64,000 bases of DNA from Candidatus Poribacteria bacterium (GCA_965215015.1 OZ244042.1:4800001-4864000), one strand, 5' to 3'. Shown: positions 12,772 to 25,816, counted from the stretch's first letter. Notes: generated by a model not told the origin, from the letters alone. A program made the numbers and translations.

Positions 12772-13758
12772 GTGCTCTTGCGATTGGAACATCCTGGATT
12801 TCTCCTGTTACTCCTGCTTTTGCCATTCCTCCTCTGGTATTTGCGTCAGAAAAACAGCGGTCATATCCGCTTTTCAGACCTCAGTATCAGCCGTCAGATT
12901 ACGCCCAGCTTTTGGGTTCGGTCCCTTCCGGCCCTGAATTTTGCGCGATTTCTTGTCGTCGTTCTCATGATTTTTGCCCTCGCCCGGCCACAGTCATCCC
13001 AAAGCCGCGAGCAGATTGCCTCTGAAGGTATTGATATTCTGCTAATCCTTGACATTTCAGGAAGCATGCGAGCGGAAGATTTCAAGCCCCATAACCGTTT
13101 GCACGCAGCAAAAGCGGTTATCCACGACTTTTTAGGAGAGCGGAAGAACGACCGCATCGGATTAGTTGTTTTCGCCGGTGAAAGTTACACACAATGTCCC
13201 CTCACGCTCGATTACCGGGTCTTGGGGAATCTGCTCCTTAATGTCGAGATTGGTATGCTTGAAGATGGCACCGCCATCGGGGATGCCCTTGCCAATGCTA
13301 CCAATAGACTCCGCCATTCAACAACCAAGAGTAAAATTGCAATCTTGCTCACCGACGGGGAGAACAACGCCGGAACTATTGATCCGTTGACCGCTGCCCA
13401 AGCCGCCAAAGCCCTCAACATCAAGGTGTATACCATCGGCATGGGGCAAGAAGGCGGTGCACTTATTCCCTATCGTGATCCCGTTTTTGGATTGCAGTAT
13501 AGCCAGACTCGGACCTATGTTGATGAAGAAATGCTCAAACAGATCGCAGAAATTACAGACGGACGTTACTTCCGGGCGACCGATAATCAAAAACTCGCTG
13601 AGATTTATAAAGAAATTAACCAGCTTGAAACAACAAAGATTGAGACCCTGGAATACATCCGTTATAAGGAGCTCGCCGCGTACCCTTTAATCCCTGCTAC
13701 GCTCCTGCTAATCTTGGAAATTATCCTGTCAAACACACGCCTGCGAAAAATCCCCTGA
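12772..13758 (+). CDS. batA: VWA domain protein, BatA-like
   Basis: N-terminal EHP..LLLL double TM, ALARPQ, MIDAS DISGSM, GTAIGDAL, LLTDGENN, TDGRYFRATD. Confidence 0.88.
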   Translation: MLLRLEHPGFLLLLLLLPFLLWYLRQKNSGHIRFSDLSISRQITPSFWVRSLPALNFARFLVVVLMIFALARPQSSQSREQIASEGIDILLILDISGSMRAEDFKPHNRLHAAKAVIHDFLGERKNDRIGLVVFAGESYTQCPLTLDYRVLGNLLLNVEIGMLEDGTAIGDALANATNRLRHSTTKSKIAILLTDGENNAGTIDPLTAAQAAKALNIKVYTIGMGQEGGALIPYRDPVFGLQYSQTRTYVDEEMLKQIAEITDGRYFRATDNQKLAEIYKEINQLETTKIETLEYIRYKELAAYPLIPATLLLILEIILSNTRLRKIP

Positions 13759-13776: not shown

Positions 13777-14769
13777 ATGGAAATTTATCGATGGGAAGGG
13801 AAAGGCTTTCGACAACTAGCCCCGTTGCGCTTTGAAGAAGAGCGCGACCTCGAAGACCTACTCGAGCAGGATCCCAATCTTCTCCTAGGAAACGAGCGCA
13901 TTTGTATAATCAGCCGACAAGTTCCCATCGGAAAATCCCAAAAAATCGATCTCCTCGCACTCGACCGTCAAGGAAATTGTATCGTCATCGAACTCAAGCG
14001 GGGAAAAGCCTCCCGTGCGGCGGTTGCACAAATTCTCGAATACGCCGCAGCCGTTGCCAAATTCTCCTTTGCCGATCTGGAGCGTTTTGCAGGACGCTGG
14101 TTTCAGGGACAAGGACGCGAGTTTACCTCTCTGCTCGCACTGCACAGCGCGTTCTTCAGCTACGAATTGGGTGCCATGAGGATGTCTGCCTTCAATCGTA
14201 AGCAGCGGATGGTTCTTGTTTCTGAAGGGGTTGATGTGCGTGTCCTCGATATCGCCGAATACCTCCGGCGCGGTGGCATCGACCTGACCTACATTTCCTA
14301 CTTCTCCTACCAAGCACCTGACGAAATCCTGATTGCTACAAAGACAATACTCGGCACCGCTGCCATTGAGGAATCCCGCGCCACCTATCAATACACCCCC
14401 CGGCAGCTCTTAACCCGCGAGCGTTTTCTCGCCACACTTACCAAGAATCAAGAACTCCATCAGGTTGCCCAACAATTCTTTAATTACGTGGAATCGTGCG
14501 GTGCAATTCTTCGGCCGAGAATCGCCCAGATTCGCATGACAATTGGCGGAAGGTGGTGGATGGGGTCATATCCATCGAAACGAGCAACCCATTTTCGGAT
14601 CGATGCCCACGGGGATTTCACGCCGAGGCACATCGCCGAGTGTCGATCGAACCTCCCTGACGTAACACCCAAAAAATACGGAGTTTCGTTCAACATCAAA
14701 TCCCAGGCCCATCTGGAATACGCCATCGAAATTTTTGAACGCACACGAAACACAATCTTAGAGGAGTAA
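13777..14769 (+). CDS. NucS/DUF91-like PD-(D/E)xK endonuclease domain protein with C-terminal accessory domain
   Basis: E.DLEDLL, RQV, IDLLALD..GN..VIELKR, AVAQILEY motifs. Confidence 0.75.
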   Translation: MEIYRWEGKGFRQLAPLRFEEERDLEDLLEQDPNLLLGNERICIISRQVPIGKSQKIDLLALDRQGNCIVIELKRGKASRAAVAQILEYAAAVAKFSFADLERFAGRWFQGQGREFTSLLALHSAFFSYELGAMRMSAFNRKQRMVLVSEGVDVRVLDIAEYLRRGGIDLTYISYFSYQAPDEILIATKTILGTAAIEESRATYQYTPRQLLTRERFLATLTKNQELHQVAQQFFNYVESCGAILRPRIAQIRMTIGGRWWMGSYPSKRATHFRIDAHGDFTPRHIAECRSNLPDVTPKKYGVSFNIKSQAHLEYAIEIFERTRNTILEE

Positions 14770-18110: not shown

Positions 18111-18344
18111 CGACGTGAGGGAGAGGCCCAAGTCTGTAACAAAGTGAAGAGAAGAATATGAAGTGCAAAGCAGCAAAACTCCTAAAGATCTTATGTTTCT
18201 TCAAATGCAGGCTTCTTAGCACCGATACTTGATCAAGAGCTTGTGCCTGGCCAAAAATATAGACAGTGCCCAGATCACAGGCTACCTTCCCTCCGCTAAA
18301 TACTCGGTAGGCTGTCCGTCAATTCCTGGCTCACTGAGTCTATT

Positions 18345-19005
18345 CCCCCTGCTTGCGGGGGGCTTTAATTAGGTTAGTAGTAGCGCGATTCATTGCGCGT
18401 CTTGTGTCCTCCCCCTGCTTGCGGGGGAATTTAATTAGGTTGGTAGTAGCGCGATTCATTGCGCGTCTTGTGTCCTCCCCTGCTTGCGGGGGCTTAATTA
18501 GTTTGGTAGTAGCGCGATTCATTGCGCGTCTTATGTCCTCCCCTGCTTGTGCGGAGGCTTAATTAGGTTAGTAGTAGCGCGATTCATTACGCGTCTTGTG
18601 TCCTCCCCTTGCTTGCGAGGGACTTAATTAGTTTGGTAGTAGCGCGATTCATTACGCGTCTTGTGTCCTCCCCTGCTTGCGGGTTGCATCCCTGCTTACG
18701 TTCTTTCCCCGCCGCTTGTGCCCTCCCCCTGCTTGCGGGGGAATTTAATTAGTTTGGTAGTAGCGCGATTCATTGCGCGTCTTGTGTCCTCCCCTGCTTG
18801 TGCGGAGGGACTTAATTAGTTTGGTAGTAGCGCGATTCATTGCGCGTCTTGTGTCCTCCCCTGCTTGTGCGGAGGCTTAATTAGGTTAGTAGTAGCGCGA
18901 TTCATTACGCGTCTTGTGTCCTCCCCTGCTTGCGGGTTGCATCCCTGCTTACGTTCTTTCCCCGCCGCTTGTGCCCTCCCCCTGCTTGCGGGGGACCGAG
19001 GGGGG
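18345..19005. repeat. tandem array of about 63-66 bp composite REP units (8 copies of GTAGTAGCGCGATTCATT(G/A)CGCG alternating with CCCCTGCTTGCGGGG)
   Basis: GTAG core at about 18377, 18443, 18506, 18571, 18637, 18757, 18824, 18889; an inserted variant (GGGTTGCATCCCTGCTTACGTTCTTTCCCCGCCGC) occurs twice; no unique spacers. Confidence 0.92.
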
Positions 19006-19100: not shown

Positions 19101-19754
19101 TCAGAATGTGTCAATCCCCTCAAACTCAGGAGGATCGGGCGGCTCCACCTTCGCATTACGACCAAATCTAAAGGTCACCACGACCGAGGTACCGTTCAGA
19201 TCTGAGTTATCGATTCCTGCGATGCCAACGCCACGGATATAGCGGTAACTCCCTCCAAAATAGATCTGGAGATAAGTTTTCATATTCCATACTATATTGA
19301 GTTGCGGCTGAATAATAAAAAAAGTATCGTCGGGACCACCCAATCTACCATATTCATCATAGGATCCATCAAACCGCTGATATCGATCTGTCAACCCACC
19401 AAACCCGATCAAAGTCTGGGCAGAGAGATGGACATCTCGACTGGGAGCGATAATATATTCCAGCTCCAGTCCACTGTAGGCAAACTCAAATTCACGTTCA
19501 GGATCAGACGATTTTATGTCTCTGAGCAAGCCGTAAAATCCGCCCCCAATTGCATACCTATGTTTATAAATCCAGCCCCCTCGACCACCAACTATCAAGC
19601 CGAATACATTGTTAATCCTTGTAACCTTTAATACCGGTCCCCCAAAACCACCGCTTTTGCTAGGCTTCTCAGCCTTCGTTTCTTCCAAATCCTCTTCTGC
19701 CCAAAGAGAGGCTGCCAACATAAGTAAAAACAACAAAAGCGTCAATTTTTTCAC
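19101..19754 (-). CDS. exported protein, probable small outer-membrane beta-barrel
   Basis: Signal peptide MKKLTLLLFLLMLAASLWA after AGGGAG; SGGFGGP...GGRGGW, alternating amphipathic strands, GGSYRY, terminal FRFG strand. Confidence 0.7.
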   Translation of the reverse strand: MKKLTLLLFLLMLAASLWAEEDLEETKAEKPSKSGGFGGPVLKVTRINNVFGLIVGGRGGWIYKHRYAIGGGFYGLLRDIKSSDPEREFEFAYSGLELEYIIAPSRDVHLSAQTLIGFGGLTDRYQRFDGSYDEYGRLGGPDDTFFIIQPQLNIVWNMKTYLQIYFGGSYRYIRGVGIAGIDNSDLNGTSVVVTFRFGRNAKVEPPDPPEFEGIDTF

Positions 19755-19782
19755 CAAATTCTCCCTTAAATTTGAAAGGTTA

Positions 19783-20228
19783 TTATACACTTTCCGCGTT
19801 CACCGAATCTTCAAGCTGTGTCATCAATTTCTGTGACAGCCGGGCTAGGATAGCGAGGCGAAAGTTCGCATCCCCATCCACGCCAAACTGCTCGAAAACC
19901 TGTTCGATTCCGCGCTCGATGTTGTTGACTTGCCCCTCATTGGATCAAGGTGTCCTGCTGCCTCGCGGAGCCGTGCTTCAATGTCGATATCGCTTCCCTC
20001 CCATAGGGCATAGGCATCGTTGTAACGACGGTAAATAACAATAGAGCGTCCCTCTAACATCATCAATGCAGACTCAAACGATTGGACAGACTCATCAGCT
20101 TCATTCCGGAATGTCTCCGCGGCAGCATCAAGTGCGTAACGGAGTAAAGCCTTTGAGTTTTTCAGATTCACGCTTGCTTCCCCGACAATACCGAGCAGAC
20201 CGACGGTTTTGATCAGTTTCACTGTCAT
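19783..20228 (-). pseudogene. internally deleted remnant of a large SspC-like ATP-binding protein
   Basis: Frame 1 LIKTVGLLGI...RSIVIYRRYNDAYALWEGSDIDIEARL resembles the middle of the large ATPases found with DUF4007/PAPS-reductase genes; it joins out of frame near 19940 to NEGQVNNIERGIEQVF...FRLAILARLSQKLM...SV*, which reads like a C-terminus. No Walker A region remains. Confidence 0.65.
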
Positions 20229-20343
20229 GGTTATTCGGGACTGAGGTGGGGCTTAGGGTTCTTAGCAGGGGAAGGGGGTACAGCATACGCCGTATGCTTA
20301 ATACCTTAAAGACTCTCACGGAATACCTTTGCGATTCTGCCGA

Positions 20344-21231
20344 TTACAATTCACGGTAATCCCCTTGAAATACCTCTCTGATGTGCCAGTTTATAAAATT
20401 TTCGTGCGGATAATAGGACTGCCTTTGAGGGAAGTTGATCCTTTCACCGTGAAAATTCATAAGCCACTCTTCAAAACCCACTGAACCATTGGCCTCATCT
20501 GATACCATTATTTCTAGTTGCTCGGACAGCGTAAACGCCCCACGGTCAAATAGCTTATGGTGTAACGAACATAGAGCCAATCCATTTACTTCTGTATCGG
20601 GACCATCTGCCTGACGCCATTTGATATGAGATGCTTCTAGCGCAATAGGCAAGGTGCCCAATCTCACATCAAAGCCACAGACAGCGCATTTATATTCGTA
20701 GGCTTTCAGGATATTCGCCCGGAAGTTGGAGTTGGGCCTTCGCCACCTGGAGATCTGAGGAGGAAACCCAATCCCAACAGCCTGTAAAATGTCCTCATGA
20801 AGCGAAGGAGGAAAATGACCATCTAGTAAGCTATGGATTATTTCAAAAGACAATTTGGAATCGTTTTGAAGTTGATAAGCAATATCTTCGAGAAAACCTC
20901 CAGAAGTGTTGTAACGGACCAGATCGCTTCTTAGAGCGTCTCCACTGGCTGTTTGTCGAATTCTGTCGGCATCAGATATCTCCCAAATTCCGTCATTTTG
21001 GAGCCGCCAAAACGGATAATGTGTTCTATCATTGGCTTGTCTGGGACCAAACTCCCTCAGTAAATTTCCAAGGTTGTCATCTATTTCAGAATATGGCAGG
21101 AAGCGGTTCCCATCTCGTAGTAACTTTCCAATGGCATACAGAACCAGCAGAGGCTTGTGAGGTGCTCTCCTGTCAGCATTTTTCCACACTTTTAATTGTT
21201 CAAATTTATGAGCAATTGCTTCTCTGTTCAT
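20344..21231 (-). CDS. phosphorothioated-DNA-binding restriction endonuclease (SBD + HNH)
   Basis: Sulfur-binding-domain motifs RAPHKPLL and HYPFWRLQNDGIWE (ScoMcrA SBD type); HNH with CAVCG, ASHIKW, NGLALCSLHHKLFD. Confidence 0.88.
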   Translation of the reverse strand: MNREAIAHKFEQLKVWKNADRRAPHKPLLVLYAIGKLLRDGNRFLPYSEIDDNLGNLLREFGPRQANDRTHYPFWRLQNDGIWEISDADRIRQTASGDALRSDLVRYNTSGGFLEDIAYQLQNDSKLSFEIIHSLLDGHFPPSLHEDILQAVGIGFPPQISRWRRPNSNFRANILKAYEYKCAVCGFDVRLGTLPIALEASHIKWRQADGPDTEVNGLALCSLHHKLFDRGAFTLSEQLEIMVSDEANGSVGFEEWLMNFHGERINFPQRQSYYPHENFINWHIREVFQGDYREL

Positions 21232-21258
21232 TTTTCATGGCCTGCTATTTGAGAGAAT

Positions 21259-21369
21259 CTATGATAGGCAAGGCAGGATTTTCGGCACTTTGTCCCGCAT
21301 GTAAATCGCGAGTGCTGAGCTATCTTTGCCACCGGAAAGGCCGAGGATATGACGCATTTTTTGTTCCAT
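21259..21369 (-). pseudogene. truncated sspD-like 5' stub (36 codons)
   Basis: MEQKMRHILGLSGGKDSSALAIYMRDKVPK-ILPCLS*; the first 29-30 codons and about 75 bp of upstream leader align with the gene starting at 24966. Confidence 0.9.
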
Positions 21370-21444
21370 GGTATCCCCTAACTCTCTGTTTAAGATATGC
21401 CCCCCTGCTGTTGGCGGATTCAATTAATTGTATGAGGGGGGTGC

Positions 21445-21815
21445 TTGACGTACTCCCACACCTAAAGGGTTGGGATTCTTCACTGTCCCTTTAGGATTAG
21501 TTTAGATATATGATTGATGAATCTAAACTTGCGGATAGACTTGTCGTAGATAACATAGTAGCAACGCTGGAGCGCAATGCAATGATTCCATACCTCCGCG
21601 TGTCCCTCTATCGTCTTGTGTAACTCACGGTTGCCGTGATGGCTATACATTTTGAAATTGTAGGACTTCATAGGATTTCGCTCTCTGGAACGGACTGTTA
21701 GGGCGATCCCTAACAACGGCTAACAATCAGACAGTTTCAACCATTGTTTGACTGAATACCGTTTGCCAATCTGTATCCCTGTCTTAAAAGACGGGGGTTA
21801 GATCGGAAGATTCTG
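21445..21815 (-). mobile_element. tnpB: internally deleted IS200/IS605-family element with a tnpB N-terminal fragment
   Basis: Minus strand: TTTAT target, left end with hairpin (CCCCCGTCTTTTAAGACAGGG), MKSYNFKMY...VWNHCIALQRCYY fragment, right end AGAATCCCAACCCTTTAGGTGTGGGAGTACGTCAA. Confidence 0.8.
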
Positions 21816-21843
21816 ATAAAATTTCCGTTTTCTTTTTTCCCAT

Positions 21844-22332
21844 CTACCGATGAAATTCCAAAATCCAAGATTCCAATAGGCCAGAAATCCTATCTGCTTC
21901 TTCTTGAACATCCTGAAGTTTACTGTATGAATTAGGGCGTGTTTGTGAAACAATGCGAATCTTTAGATTATGTTCATATAACCAATTACTTAATCGTAAT
22001 TGTACTAAATTTTCTACTGCCTTGCGGTATTCTTGGCTATCAATCTGAAATATCTCTTTCGGTGTGAATTTTATTGCTGCAAAATCAACCTTTTCTAGTG
22101 GTACTTCCTCATAGTAATCAATATTGGAAAGACGTTGAAGATAAGTATTATTATTTCCATCAGATAAATGTTGGGCGAGTCTACCGAGTGCCCCTGTACG
22201 TCCTCTTGTCTGTCCAACGTAGAGAGTTGCCAGATTGTCAACTACCCCATAAATCGTATACAAAAAACCGTTTTTTTTCGCTATTGTTACATCAAAAACT
22301 GTTGCCTGTCCAATTTCTACAGAATGTTTCAT
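21844..22332 (-). CDS. putative GIY-YIG family endonuclease
   Basis: GFLY...LYVGQT...GRLAQH...AVE...PN matches the GIY / YIG / Arg / Glu / Asn layout; overlaps the ATPase 3' end by 41 bp. Confidence 0.6.
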   Translation of the reverse strand: MKHSVEIGQATVFDVTIAKKNGFLYTIYGVVDNLATLYVGQTRGRTGALGRLAQHLSDGNNNTYLQRLSNIDYYEEVPLEKVDFAAIKFTPKEIFQIDSQEYRKAVENLVQLRLSNWLYEHNLKIRIVSQTRPNSYSKLQDVQEEADRISGLLESWILEFHR

Positions 22333-24034
22333 ACCTCCGCAAAAAATCAGTTAGATTAAGTCTTCGGATTACATCTGAAAGAGTTCCGCCAACTCTCTCC
22401 CGGTATTCCGTCATAATCTCTTCAATTTCATCATCATCTTGTTCTGATTTATAAACGAGATCATATTCACCTCTAGTGATCGAATAGAAGAGGAGGTCCA
22501 TTACCTTCAGCAGATTACTATTGTCGTGGGCAGTGTCTAAAATATCCCGACAAAATCTGTGGGATTTATTGACTCTTACAATCAGTCCTTCCCTAGGATC
22601 ATGGGCTCTTTCCCATAGTTGATTATTGTCTAGTGTATCCACATATAGAACACGCTGCCCTGTTTTTTTGATATGTTGTTCATCTTCAGGCTTTATCGGT
22701 TTCGTGCTAACAGCTTTATTCCGGCGTTTCTCTAACTCCTTTCTTTCCTCTGCAGGAGCAACACTCTCATCAAACCTATCTTCATCGGCTTGGAGCTGCG
22801 AGATCCGATTTAACTGCTGATTAGCGGTATCATGAGGGCCTTGCGTGAGTGACTCGACCGTAAGGCGGTGCGCGGTGCGCCAAGCAATCCGACTCTTTTT
22901 TATCGCCTCCTGAACCTCTGGTTTAAGCTGGTCTTGAGCAATTTCCGAAAGATTTACACGATTCTTCGTAACATTTATATTTAAAATATCATCAGCGTCA
23001 CTATCGATTAACAGCCGGCCACGAAAAGCACATAAATCCTGATCTTGTGGCACGAAAGCTAACCCATCTGCCCACGAAATCAATCTCCAGTTACGATAAA
23101 TGTAGAAACCATAATTTCCTGATCCAATCAGATAACGGTCCCGGCAATCCTTCCGGCTCATTAAGCCTTTACGTTCTACGCTCGGCGGATGCGGAAGTTG
23201 CGTTATTTCAACTCGTGCCCATATACTTGCGGTAGAATCAAGTTGAATTGCCTGTAATTTTGTAATCCATTTTGGGTGAAGCCCATCCCAATTGTGCTCG
23301 TTCAAATCACCATTATCAACGTCAATTTCATCTATAAACAAAGGATCTATCGGTGGGACATCATAATCATCAATTTTCAGCGAGAGGCGTTTGGCTCCTT
23401 CAACTATGCCTTTCAAATAGTAGTAGTAAATTACACCGGCTTTAGCCTTTAATCCGTGTATAATTTCAGAGGTAGGCGGTAGGGATTCATGAAATAGCTT
23501 GGTGATACGAATTAAAGTACCAGATTTCCCTTGAGTACAAGCGTCCAATTCATTGAGATCTTCGTCTGTGGGCTTGGTTAAATCGTAAACATATTTTCCC
23601 TTCTCAACAATTAAATCTTGATCTAACACGACTTTGCGAACATCATTTGAACCATTGTCAGAACGTGATACTATTTCTAACTGCTTTCCTAGTGATGAGG
23701 CAGCTGATTTCAAGCCTATACCGAACTTTGAAAGCGTTTTCGCATGATATCGTTGTGCTGAAGAACCTAAGGTAAGGGCATTATCTAACCCCTGCTCATC
23801 CATACCGCAGCCGTTATCTACAATAACCAGTGACTTTAAAATCGCTCGCGGCCTTCCACGTTGTCGTTTTGTTCGTTCTTCACTCTCTGTCTTCGCTTTG
23901 ATTACAACGGAGGTAGCGCTTGCTGACACTGAATTATCCACGAGATCTAAAATAGCAGATATCGGATCGTATCCTATGCGCCCCAACGCTTGAAATACAC
24001 GTCCTGCATCCCATGCCCCTTCTTTTATACGCAT
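22292..24034 (-). CDS. GHKL (MORC/HATPase_c_3-type) ATPase with S5-like domain and C-terminal charged helical region
   Basis: GY...AILDLVDNS, DNGCGM, SKFGIGLKSA, SGTLI motifs; YGFYIYRNWRLI; likely ATG at 24034 after GGGGAG. Confidence 0.88.
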   Translation of the reverse strand: MRIKEGAWDAGRVFQALGRIGYDPISAILDLVDNSVSASATSVVIKAKTESEERTKRQRGRPRAILKSLVIVDNGCGMDEQGLDNALTLGSSAQRYHAKTLSKFGIGLKSAASSLGKQLEIVSRSDNGSNDVRKVVLDQDLIVEKGKYVYDLTKPTDEDLNELDACTQGKSGTLIRITKLFHESLPPTSEIIHGLKAKAGVIYYYYLKGIVEGAKRLSLKIDDYDVPPIDPLFIDEIDVDNGDLNEHNWDGLHPKWITKLQAIQLDSTASIWARVEITQLPHPPSVERKGLMSRKDCRDRYLIGSGNYGFYIYRNWRLISWADGLAFVPQDQDLCAFRGRLLIDSDADDILNINVTKNRVNLSEIAQDQLKPEVQEAIKKSRIAWRTAHRLTVESLTQGPHDTANQQLNRISQLQADEDRFDESVAPAEERKELEKRRNKAVSTKPIKPEDEQHIKKTGQRVLYVDTLDNNQLWERAHDPREGLIVRVNKSHRFCRDILDTAHDNSNLLKVMDLLFYSITRGEYDLVYKSEQDDDEIEEIMTEYRERVGGTLSDVIRRLNLTDFLRRYETFCRNWTGNSF

Positions 24035-24147
24035 CTTCTCCCCCGGTTTTTGTAAGGTGGTAGCTATCGCCTCTATTTTCCAAGGCACCTATTGCTACAT
24101 TACATAGAGATTTCCTAGTTTCCTTATGAATAAGATTTTTCCTAGTC

Positions 24148-24966
24148 TCACAAATCACAAATCAAGCATGGCTTCTCATCGTCCTCATCATCAAGGACAT
24201 CGCCGAAGATTTCAATTAACGGGCGATTCGGTTGGGACTTTTTTTCCTGTACCATTGCCTTCGCATGGTTTTCCTTAATCTGCCGTTCCCGCTCAGGGGC
24301 CGCCAGCTCTTCTAAACTCTCACCTTGGCTCCAAGTATACCTCTCGCCTGTTTTCGAGTTAAATTTCTCATAACCCTTGGCGAGTTCAAATAGCTCAGGG
24401 TGATTCTTCTTTAATCCAATCCACTCCGCCTTGCGTTGGTAGAAACAGAAGTAGCACCCGGAGCGCGTTCGCCATTTATAATACTCGGGTAAACCGAGGC
24501 CACTCTCCTCCAAAATCCGATAGACATCCCTCTCAGTGATCCCGGCCTCTTTGAACGGATATTTGGGTTCGATATTTCGTGCCTCAACGTTCTTCAGGGG
24601 CTTATAGCCAACGCGGTCCTCGTCGGCACGGATCGCGATGTAATTATAAGCCTTATCCTCACCGACAAATTCCTCGAAGGGTCTAATCTTCAACTGTGGT
24701 GTACACCAACGCACCTGCGATGAGGGCAGTAATCCACCATTTATAGCAAGCCAATGGTCAAAATCACGCTCGGTGTTTAACCGTTCAATTTTTTTGCCCA
24801 AAAAGGCTTCTAATCGATCGAGAAATTCATACGTCTCCGGCAATTCCTTTCCCGTATCGCAGAAGGCGTATTCCATCTCCGGCACGGTGTCCCGCATGTA
24901 GATAGCGAGTGCCGAACTATCTTTGCCCCCGGAAAGGCCGAGGATATGGCGCATTTTTTGTCCCAT
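24148..24966 (-). CDS. sspD: PAPS-reductase-family protein, SspD-like (DNA phosphorothioation family)
   Basis: PP-loop LSGGKDS, FCDTGKELPETY, RWCT, RSGCYFCFYQRK, C-terminal CLIC; assigned to SspD rather than CysH/DndC from size and motif recall. Confidence 0.75.
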   Translation of the reverse strand: MGQKMRHILGLSGGKDSSALAIYMRDTVPEMEYAFCDTGKELPETYEFLDRLEAFLGKKIERLNTERDFDHWLAINGGLLPSSQVRWCTPQLKIRPFEEFVGEDKAYNYIAIRADEDRVGYKPLKNVEARNIEPKYPFKEAGITERDVYRILEESGLGLPEYYKWRTRSGCYFCFYQRKAEWIGLKKNHPELFELAKGYEKFNSKTGERYTWSQGESLEELAAPERERQIKENHAKAMVQEKKSQPNRPLIEIFGDVLDDEDDEKPCLICDL

Positions 24967-25122
24967 GGTATCCCTCTATTTTCTATTTAAGATATGTTCC
25001 CCCCCTGTTGGCGGAGTCGATTAATTGTATGAGGGAGGTGCATAAATATAGTTGACGTCATCGCTAAAAATTCTATACACTTACCGCCCCTCTGGGGCGG
25101 GGGCAGCTATCAACTCTTTTCT

Positions 25123-25235
25123 TTGACGGCCTCCCAGTCCTAAAGGCTTAGGATTCTTCGCTGCCCCTTTAGGAGTGGAATCGCTCTATCCACTAAAGTG
25201 GGCCATCGAAAGATGGGCTGACAACTTCTCCTGAG
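25123..25235 (-). mobile_element. orphan IS200/IS605 right end with hairpin-rich scaffold (candidate reRNA/omegaRNA remnant)
   Basis: Minus strand ends AGAATCCTAAGCCTTTAGGACTGGGAGGCCGTCAA, homologous to 21445-21494; preceded by hairpins CCCATCTTTCGATGG and CCACTTTAGTGG. Confidence 0.6.
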
Positions 25236-25574
25236 GTAGTAGGGTGATTGATCACCCGTTATGACGCGCAATTCATTGCGCGTCGCCTACGGGGGTGCTT
25301 TCCCCACCGCTTGCGATTCCTCCCCCACCCGCAACAAATTCCCCTCCGCTTGCGGGGAGTTAGGGGGTAGGGGTTCTTATAAGCAATCCGATTAATGGGA
25401 GGAAATCCAAGGTCATGATCGTTATAGATTTTACCACAAAATTGTAGATTTTACCACACAATTGTTTCATTGGGTAGATAATATTCGCACACAATCAACA
25501 AAGCATCGTCAAGCCAACCTCTACTGCTGCTGTTAGGTGACCATCCCCTCCATCGCTAGCGCAGATTAACGTGG

Positions 25575-25708
25575 ATTACCCAATCCTGTAAATCCTGATT
25601 CAGACAATAAGGAGACACCTACCTCACACACAGCCCGTCATTGAGATGTAAACATGAATTACCCAATCCTGTGAATCCTTAAATCCTGTAAATCCTGATT
25701 CAGACAGT
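25575..25708. repeat. two AATCCTGTAAATCCTGATTCAGAC repeat halves
   Basis: Same 9-nt periodic motif family as the 9375-9845 array. Confidence 0.7.
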
Positions 25709-25816
25709 TGTGACATTGATCAAATTTCTTGCCTTGACTAAGGCGACCATGTTACTATCAGACGACGCCAATTGACTAGATGCTGCAAAATGAAATACTA
25801 TATCAGGAGGTAAACA

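Follow-up and report, generated by a model that had tools for sequence, protein, structure and literature searches.

A two-gene cassette, encoding a MORC-like GHKL ATPase and a putative, divergent GIY-YIG nuclease, was found behind an intact sspD gene in a 64,000-nucleotide (nt) stretch of DNA from Candidatus Poribacteria bacterium (OZ244042.1:4800001-4864000, hereafter the window), whose genome is a single contig of 5.94 Mb. The pairing of the two genes is obligate and translationally coupled, the pair accompanies phosphorothioate (PT)-marking genes in several bacterial lineages and is embedded at the effector end of PT-writing operons, and the catalytic motifs of both proteins are intact. 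With a probability that we put at roughly 55%, the pair is a PT-linked restriction effector cassette whose nuclease is under the control of the ATPase.

An earlier sequence-only reading of this DNA had described three intact, co-oriented open reading frames (ORFs) in an AT-rich block, coding for an SspD-like protein, a GHKL ATPase of MORC type and a GIY-YIG protein. All of this was borne out. The ORFs lie on the minus strand and their translations were read, the three domain calls held with PADLOC, Pfam and family alignments, and the G+C content (GC) was 0.487 for sspD, 0.425 for the ATPase gene and 0.362 for the nuclease gene (0.36-0.49 over the block) versus 0.515-0.529 in the housekeeping flanks. 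The three genes are as follows.

24148-24966, minus strand: sspD (protein P0001), 272 amino acids (aa), intact PP-loop/PAPS-reductase-type sulfur-transfer enzyme
22292-24034, minus strand: MORC-like GHKL ATPase (P0002); longest ORF 22292-24088, 598 aa
21844-22332, minus strand: divergent GIY-YIG nuclease, putative (P0003), 162 aa

Within the phylum, 176 genomes were surveyed, and matches were found to the ATPase in 17, the nuclease in 15, SspC in 115 and SspD in 128. The pairing, whose lack of conservation was to refute the sequence-only proposal, was conserved: the nuclease gene abutted the ATPase gene in 15/15 genomes. An ATPase gene without a nuclease gene occurred in 2/17, once at a contig end (G123) and once with a 23-residue nuclease remnant (G030). 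Genes of the ssp locus lay within 15 kb of the ATPase gene in 17/17 genomes, and in 13/17 sspD ended at most 400 nt upstream of it. Other arrangements had sspD just downstream of the ATPase gene (G030), two other GHKL genes (G067) or ∼14 kb with pbe, HNH and OLD-like genes (G070) between sspD and the ATPase gene, or sspC immediately upstream of it and no sspD (G094).

From 52 loci fetched with the ATPase, 8 were examined, 5 of them from Candidatus Poribacteria (69-83% identity) and 3 distant (24-25%). Gene orders included sspB-sspC-sspD-ATPase-nuclease (L007), HNH followed by sspB-sspC-sspD-ATPase and the contig end (L009), sspD-ATPase-nuclease-pbeA-pbeC-x-sspB-sspC (L006) and sspD-ATPase-nuclease-pbeA fragment (L008), and in L010 only a 19-residue sspD remnant was found ahead of the pair. 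The ATPase stop and the nuclease start overlapped by 4 nt (L006, L007, L008, L010, L068 and L070), and the gap from sspD to the ATPase gene was an operon-like 18-113 nt.

Metagenome contigs were also scanned, with a 12-row alignment built from distant relatives of the nuclease, and 15 loci were found, 33-41% identical to P0003 and with a GC of 0.45-0.62. Of the 13 loci whose upstream sequence reached 150 nt or more (that of L060 and L069 was too short to count), 12 had the ATPase gene directly upstream of the nuclease gene, the exception being L072. All 4 distinct loci in which 1 kb or more preceded the ATPase gene contained PT genes, L063 being a partial repeat of L064. In L061 (902-11921), the order sspB-sspC-sspD-ATPase-nuclease-sspF-sspG placed the pair after the writer genes and ahead of a known restriction module. 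Similarly, L065 and L071 carried sspC-sspD-ATPase-nuclease, while in L064 pbeA-pbeC-ATPase-nuclease was convergent with dndA-dndE-dndD-dndC. Downstream of the pair in L059 were Prim-Pol and DUF3987 genes, which are mobile-element-like. Given this pairing and these PT neighbours in distant loci, the conserved unit is the pair, with PT islands as its habitat.

The three-gene operon proposed from sequence therefore did not stand as a unit, and SspD is not a specific partner: a complete sspB-sspC-sspD operon normally precedes the pair (L007, L009, L061, L065 and L071), and the pair also occurs without an sspD between sspC and the ATPase gene (L076) and beside dnd genes (L064). That proposal had offered two alternatives, of which a two-gene cassette behind sspD was closest to the evidence; the other, recruitment of SspD into a new module, is kept below as the bolder reading.

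Two side observations concern the same loci. The SspC and SspD counts above show that Ssp genes are unusually frequent in the phylum. In two related genomes, at L074 (7496-11865, minus strand) and L073 (9970-11886, plus strand), sspD is followed by other large GHKL proteins, of 638 aa and, in L074, additionally 818 aa, which had no PADLOC match and may constitute a second unnamed Ssp-linked GHKL module.

The ATPase and the nuclease

P0002 matched Pfam HATPase_c_3 (1.1e-23), and in a family alignment of 15 sequences, with relatives down to 40% identity, GHKL motifs I-IV were invariant (D/E-x-x-D33-N34, D73xG75xG77, G105xG107 and G172-T173). When searched against the PDB, the family profile found MORC4 (7k7t, 3.2e-8), SMCHD1 (3.8e-8) and MutL (8.4e-5) as well as MORC2/3, and P0002 was named MORC-like because of these matches. 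The alignment to MORC4 7k7t spanned positions 22-323, i.e., past the GHKL domain, and the predicted layout is a GHKL domain, an S5-type middle domain and a helical C-terminal part. For the C-terminal part, the ESM Atlas gave nameless clusters only, which are leads, and a plasmid collection held one distant match to the ATPase, at 22.5% identity.

The ORF of P0002 extends to a GTG at 24088; its relatives are about 568 aa long, and their starts correspond to the ATG at 24034. This ATG is most likely the true start, because a GGAG ribosome site is found there and the relatives begin there. Near the 3' end, a 1-nt deletion three codons ahead of the usual stop has replaced the last 3 residues by 18. 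The overlap with the nuclease gene noted in the sequence-only reading is thus real, and owing to this deletion it amounts to 41 nt, compared with 4 nt in relatives. Contigs of two other runs (X1 and X2) spanned 21750-25300 with zero differences, and a 227-nt contig of run X6, which by its code belongs to a different study, spanned the deletion site, again with zero differences. These contigs show that the deletion did not arise as an assembly error in this record.

The motif string of P0003 is FLY..LYVGQT..GRLAQH..E107..N134. Its match to the Pfam GIY-YIG model was below the cut-off (E 0.04, 14.6 bits versus 22.6), PADLOC and NCBIfam returned zero matches, and no Pfam domain was found in its 93 close relatives (≥60% identity). 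At E ≤ 0.001, a profile search of 1.84 billion representatives identified 134 proteins, almost all with lengths of 150-170 aa. An alignment of 109 sequences was built from P0003, 8 of its close relatives and 100 of the 102 representatives that were 140-180 aa long; P0217, whose first half is apparently out of frame, and one other sequence were excluded. Invariant throughout were Y38, G40, G47, R51, H55 and E107, and nearly so Y25, T42 and R103; N134 was invariant in a 12-sequence alignment (A3) and conserved at ≥90% in another (A1). The family thus displays the GIY-YIG catalytic constellation of Tyr, Tyr-x-Gly, Arg, His/Tyr, Glu and Asn. We take these positions to correspond to those of I-TevI. 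PF01541 was matched by 82/109 members at E ≤ 0.1 (best 2.9e-7), and PF20815 (GIY_YIG_2) by 19/109.

An AlphaFold2 model of the nuclease reached a predicted local distance difference test (pLDDT) value of 96.1 with the 109-row alignment, versus 73.6 with close relatives only. In a VIA-align comparison with 48,161 representative PDB chains, the top two were I-TevI (Z 5.1) and T4 EndoII (Z 4.9), and the I-TevI catalytic domain was fitted with a root mean square deviation of 3.5 over 87/92 residues. UvrC (Z 4.0), HIGLE (Z 4.0), Slx1 (Z 3.7) and R.Eco29kI followed further down the list. These Z values are low, with a maximum of 5.1 and all below 8. Foldseek gave zero matches in the PDB at E ≤ 0.001 for either nuclease model, placing UvrC GIY-YIG domains at ranks 15-32 (E ∼0.8-1.2), and hhalign of the family against the N terminus of the genome's own UvrC gave a probability of 3.8%, aligning the GIY..YIG hairpin only. 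The nuclease profile matched PDB sequences at chance level alone (E ≥ 0.17). The fold and profile check proposed in the sequence-only reading came out in favour of GIY-YIG at family level for the PF01541 profile and empty for Foldseek. In view of the low Z values and the weak Foldseek and hhalign results, the assignment depends mainly on the family-level profile matches and the invariant residues, and P0003 is taken as a divergent GIY-YIG nuclease on these sequence grounds. No nuclease relative was found in the plasmid collection or in viral contigs. The ESM Atlas contained nameless clusters of ∼160-aa proteins, mostly from Pseudomonadota, with GIY-YIG annotated on 39% of the members of one cluster; these are leads only.

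A co-fold of the two proteins, likewise proposed earlier, scored 0.43 (runs 0.43, 0.33 and 0.44), compared with 0.00 for the best control. The co-fold mark was reached by 58/80 solved complexes and 2/110 mismatched pairs, and scores of 0.60 or less were obtained for just 7 of those 80 complexes, plus both mismatches. The runs shared at least 80% of contacts, with a partner pLDDT of at least 84. The modelling thus lends weak support to an ATPase-nuclease complex.

A rearranged Ssp locus

P0001 matched the PADLOC SspD model at full length (1.6e-115, 383.6 bits, positions 1-276 of 277) and Pfam PAPS_reduct (2.7e-10), and the motifs LSGGKDSS, VRWCT, GCYFC and PCLICDL were read in it. With this full-length match, the PP-loop SGGKDS and the C-terminal cysteines, it belongs to SspD. 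SspABCD requires sspB and sspC beside sspD, and neither is intact here. SspB had zero matches across the whole 5.94-Mb genome, by a model that scores 1e-100 in two relatives (G045 and G056), and the sole SspC match in the genome was a fragment of ∼80 positions at 19950-20228 (PADLOC SspC 3e-18). For SspE there was just a 57-position weak match elsewhere in the genome, for PbeA no credible match in the complete genome, and a Pfam scan of the ORFs nearby found neither Z1 nor AIPR. The sequence-only reading had been correct in reporting no intact sspB, sspC, sspE, Z1 or AIPR gene. Because sspB is absent and only a fragment of sspC is left, canonical Ssp marking should be dead in this genome, and the cassette, if still active here, acts without it.

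What had been missed was that the locus is a rearranged relic. The nuclease gene is followed by TnpB-type debris and dispersed repeats, a second sspD 5' end, a gene encoding a predicted nuclease with a sulfur-binding domain (SBD) and an HNH domain, and the sspC fragment. Together with the region ahead of sspD, these features are as follows.

24967-25189, minus strand: sspD upstream region, presumed to be its promoter region, with a CCTAAAGG...CCTTTAGG hairpin element, found by repeat and alignment
21440-21840, minus strand: TnpB N-terminal remnant (remnant ORF 21480-21716) with two short dispersed repeats
21259-21511, minus strand: second, truncated sspD 5' end (∼31 first codons) and upstream hairpin-bearing region
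20344-21231, minus strand: SBD-HNH nuclease, predicted, ScoMcrA/SprMcrA-like, 295 aa
19950-20228, minus strand: sspC fragment, pseudogene remnant (model positions ∼412-492 of 1054)

Within 21440-21840 lie three short pieces of dispersed repeats, which matched the genome at 48 further places and had high contig depth. The middle piece is the TnpB remnant; a 161-aa paralogue (L093) matches TnpB 8h1j at 1.1e-5. The 5' end of sspD and its upstream hairpin region are present as a direct repeat in two parts (21278-21444 versus 24875-25041, 86% identical, and 21445-21511 versus 25123-25189, 78% identical), and the protein of the truncated copy matches SspD residues 1-31 at 87%. The repeat brackets sspD, the ATPase gene, the nuclease gene and the insertion sequence debris, a sign that two versions of the locus have recombined.

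The SBD-HNH gene matched Pfam HNH_2 (2.7e-11) at its C terminus and PADLOC HNH (7.4e-23), while its N terminus matched ScoMcrA (5zmm, 1.4e-11; 5zmo, 3.1e-10) and an SprMcrA-type structure (7cc9, 5.4e-10). The likeness to ScoMcrA/SprMcrA is that of this neighbour, with its sulfur-binding-domain and HNH_2 matches, and not of the ATPase-nuclease pair. The gene follows the nuclease gene immediately in L077 and L080. The order sspD-ATPase-nuclease-HNH was found in the syntenic G048, in G041, where the C-terminal half of sspC comes next, and in G051, with pbeA and sspD fragments ahead of the HNH gene. In total, of six cassette-bearing genomes of the genus, four (G000, G048, G051 and G041) carry SBD-HNH, and these four lack sspB and an intact sspC; no SBD-HNH gene was found by tblastn of the fetched loci of the sspBC-bearing G045 and G056. 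This contrast involves small numbers and related genomes. The restriction of SBD-HNH to sspBC-less cassette genomes is a hint that, in sponge-symbiont genomes, PT writers are in conflict with PT-dependent nucleases or undergo turnover with them.

Ratios of nonsynonymous to synonymous substitution (dN/dS) were calculated by the Nei-Gojobori method for these six genomes. Values were 0.02-0.08 for sspD, 0.13-0.20 for the ATPase gene, 0.11-0.24 for the nuclease gene, 0.10-0.22 for the HNH gene and 0.05-0.11 for an SDR neighbour as control; sspD, the ATPase gene and the nuclease gene are thus under purifying selection. Among the four sspBC-less genomes, sspD gave 0.039-0.072 and was no less constrained. 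An intact sspD without sspBC is a concrete puzzle. The nearest pairs by dS varied between genes, and the nuclease gene of G048 was closest to that of G045, an sspBC genome. With such a mosaic recombination is likely, and the date of sspBC loss cannot be fixed from it; the low dN/dS was for this reason rejected as decisive proof that sspD works without sspBC.

Relation to known systems and proposed role

As supposed in the sequence-only reading, the combination was found in no named system. PADLOC, from which a check had been sought, recognised SspD at full length; it has no model for the nuclease, its best match to the ATPase was a weak one to MzaB (1.9e-12), and no named system containing the pair was found in it. 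Among the papers listed by literature searches, no description of the pair was found by title and abstract, with a listing in supplementary tables possible. The main text of PMC2292703 (Iyer, Abhiman & Aravind 2008) does not mention GIY, URI, PAPS or Dnd, and that of PMC10853773, parts of which list URI/GIY-YIG among the nucleases near dnd genes, does not mention MORC, GHKL or HATPase.

The cassette resembles the SspABCD-SspE and SspABCD-SspFGH systems in its upstream writer genes (sspD here, sspB-sspC-sspD in relatives), in the 3' position of the effector genes and in its patchy distribution. It differs from them in that the pair has no homology to SspE, SspF, SspG or SspH, the PADLOC models of SspE/F/G matching neither P0002 nor P0003, and in that sspB and sspC are gone from this genome. 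SspE consists of DUF262 and DUF1524. Identity of the pair with SspFGH was considered and rejected, since the SspF and SspG models match other genes in L061 and the domains described in passages of PMC8092258, such as the Walker A motif of SspF and the FtsK-like end of SspH, differ from those of the pair.

With prokaryotic MORC/paraMORC cassettes and MZA (MzaB), the locus shares a GHKL ATPase, here with a predicted S5-type domain, beside a candidate nuclease gene and a DNA-modification gene, whereas here the partner is a candidate GIY-YIG protein and the modification is phosphorothioation. MZA loci have Z1 and AIPR, which this locus lacks. Membership in MZA was rejected: NCBIfam MzaB scored 62.2 bits against a cut-off of 850, and the neighbours do not include Z1, DUF4420 or AIPR. 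Distant ATPase relatives were found in the order SNF2-ATPase-HNH-dcm-Mrr_N-vsr (L011), in Z1/DUF4420/AIPR (MZA) contexts (L012 and L013), and on a Pseudomonas putida plasmid as dcm-vsr-ATPase-HNH-helicase. VcSduA, a Shedu-type protein with an N-terminal GHKL ATPase, likewise couples such an ATPase to a nuclease; according to passages of PMC12137116, it is an experimentally tested anti-phage protein, both activities are needed, and control of the nuclease by the ATPase has been proposed. Unlike the pair, VcSduA consists of one polypeptide, its nuclease is of the PD-(D/E)xK (DUF4263) type, and it has no link to PT genes. By analogy, the dcm-linked MORC-HNH cassettes and VcSduA would be precedents for an ATPase-nuclease effector.

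We infer for the pair a nuclease activity, its control by the ATPase, reading of PT and a role in defence. The ATPase would dimerise on ATP and clamp or scan DNA, as MORC and MutL do, and would hold or license the GIY-YIG nuclease, which would nick or cut DNA whose PT state flags foreignness. Placed at the 3' end of sspBCD, where the restriction partners SspE and SspFGH sit, the pair would join SspE, SspFGH and Pbe as an effector. The patchiness of the ATPase (17/176 genomes, versus 115 for SspC and 128 for SspD) is typical of swappable effectors. According to passages of PMC8092258, 83.9% of sspBCD loci lack a known restriction partner and the authors expected more partners; a PT-linked effector cassette would be a new type of partner for such loci. 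It would also tie prokaryotic MORC ATPases to backbone rather than base modification, and provide a small clonable system for how a GHKL clamp governs a nuclease.

Several findings, in addition to the low fold scores given above, weigh against an effector cassette. By fold or sequence, no PT-reading domain is evident in the ATPase or the nuclease. The pair is often found beside other restriction candidates (SspFGH in L061, PbeA/PbeC in L006, L064 and L073, SBD-HNH here), so it could be an accessory rather than the effector. In this genome and in G048, G051 and G041, the cassette is intact where sspB/sspC are lost, and an SspFGH-like attack on unmarked DNA would then be self-toxic, whereas an SspE-like PT-activated enzyme would be idle. 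The ATPase of the window has its terminal frameshift. The phylum counts are non-independent, in a phylum where Ssp is very common (73% of genomes have SspD). Among the distant loci, no ATPase gene was found in the 1.3 kb ahead of the partial nuclease match in L072, and the 549 nt that precede the ATPase gene of L070 contain no sspD match.

The persistence of the cassette without sspBC suggests another, in our judgement unlikely, role, on the writing side. The pair would form an alternative PT-marking machine with SspD or be an accessory to SspBCD marking, the GHKL ATPase taking the ATPase role of SspC and the GIY-YIG enzyme the nickase role of SspB. Work by Xiong et al. in 2020 reportedly assigned these two activities to SspC and SspB, and the pair offers an ATPase and a probable nickase to match. 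Four same-genus genomes without sspB or intact sspC keep sspD-ATPase-nuclease(-HNH) intact, their sspD is as constrained as the housekeeping SDR neighbour, and a PT reader, SBD-HNH, comes next in the same operon. In its boldest form, to which we would give similarly long odds, sspD, the ATPase and the GIY-YIG protein would make up a self-sufficient phosphorothioation or sulfur-marking machine independent of SspB and SspC, with SBD-HNH reading its mark; this would explain the strongly constrained, intact sspD of those four genomes. However, the pair is mostly found alongside intact sspB and sspC (L007, L009, L061, L065 and L074), where it would be redundant, and it occurs without an sspD between sspC and the ATPase gene and beside dnd genes. 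The constraint on sspD may also be explained by cassettes that recombined in recently from sspBC relatives, in keeping with the mosaic dS.

The pair could also be a PT-independent defence or selfish nuclease cassette that is merely lodged in an ssp/dnd defence hotspot, which we consider improbable. Survival without sspBC here, L070 with no adjacent upstream sspD and the mobile-element-like genes downstream in L059 are consistent with this, as are the GC of the pair (0.36-0.43, versus 0.49 for sspD) and the pairing of related ATPases with another modification (dcm) or none (MZA). Against it stand the adjacency to PT genes in 17/17 phylum genomes and in 4/4 distant loci with sufficient sequence upstream, in both dnd and ssp contexts, and the operon-like gaps to sspD; no locus with enough flank had the pair beside unrelated defence systems only. 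A repair module, with a MutL-like matchmaker and a UvrC/Slx1-like GIY-YIG nickase acting on PT-caused damage or stalled intermediates in host DNA, is very unlikely: the ATPase profile matches MutL besides the MORCs, UvrC and Slx1 are among the fold neighbours of the nuclease and the pair co-occurs with separate restriction modules, but it is present in just 17 of the 128 SspD-bearing phylum genomes, is kept where marking is lost, and has restriction-type cassettes as the closest ATPase relatives of known context.

Other features of the window

A promoter scan of 19700-25800 gave 15 promoter-like sites, not above the chance expectation of 11.5 ± 3.3, and 3 terminator-like sites were found in the same interval versus 5.4 ± 2.7 expected. 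On the 3' side of the island, a 229-aa ORF with a hydrophobic N terminus and no family match (19101-19790, minus strand) probably marks its chromosomal border, because G048 and G051 retain it 3' of the island. An array of ∼10 tandem ∼65-nt units with a CCCCTGCTTGCGGGGG hairpin occupies 18295-18992, lying between the island and a GFO/IDH/MocA oxidoreductase gene; entire units resemble one another, which is unlike CRISPR. Farther away, a NucS/Shedu-C-like nuclease protein (13777-14769, plus strand) matched the PADLOC candidate system PDC-S11 at 4.2e-32, and its gene adjoins a VWA gene at 12772-13758.

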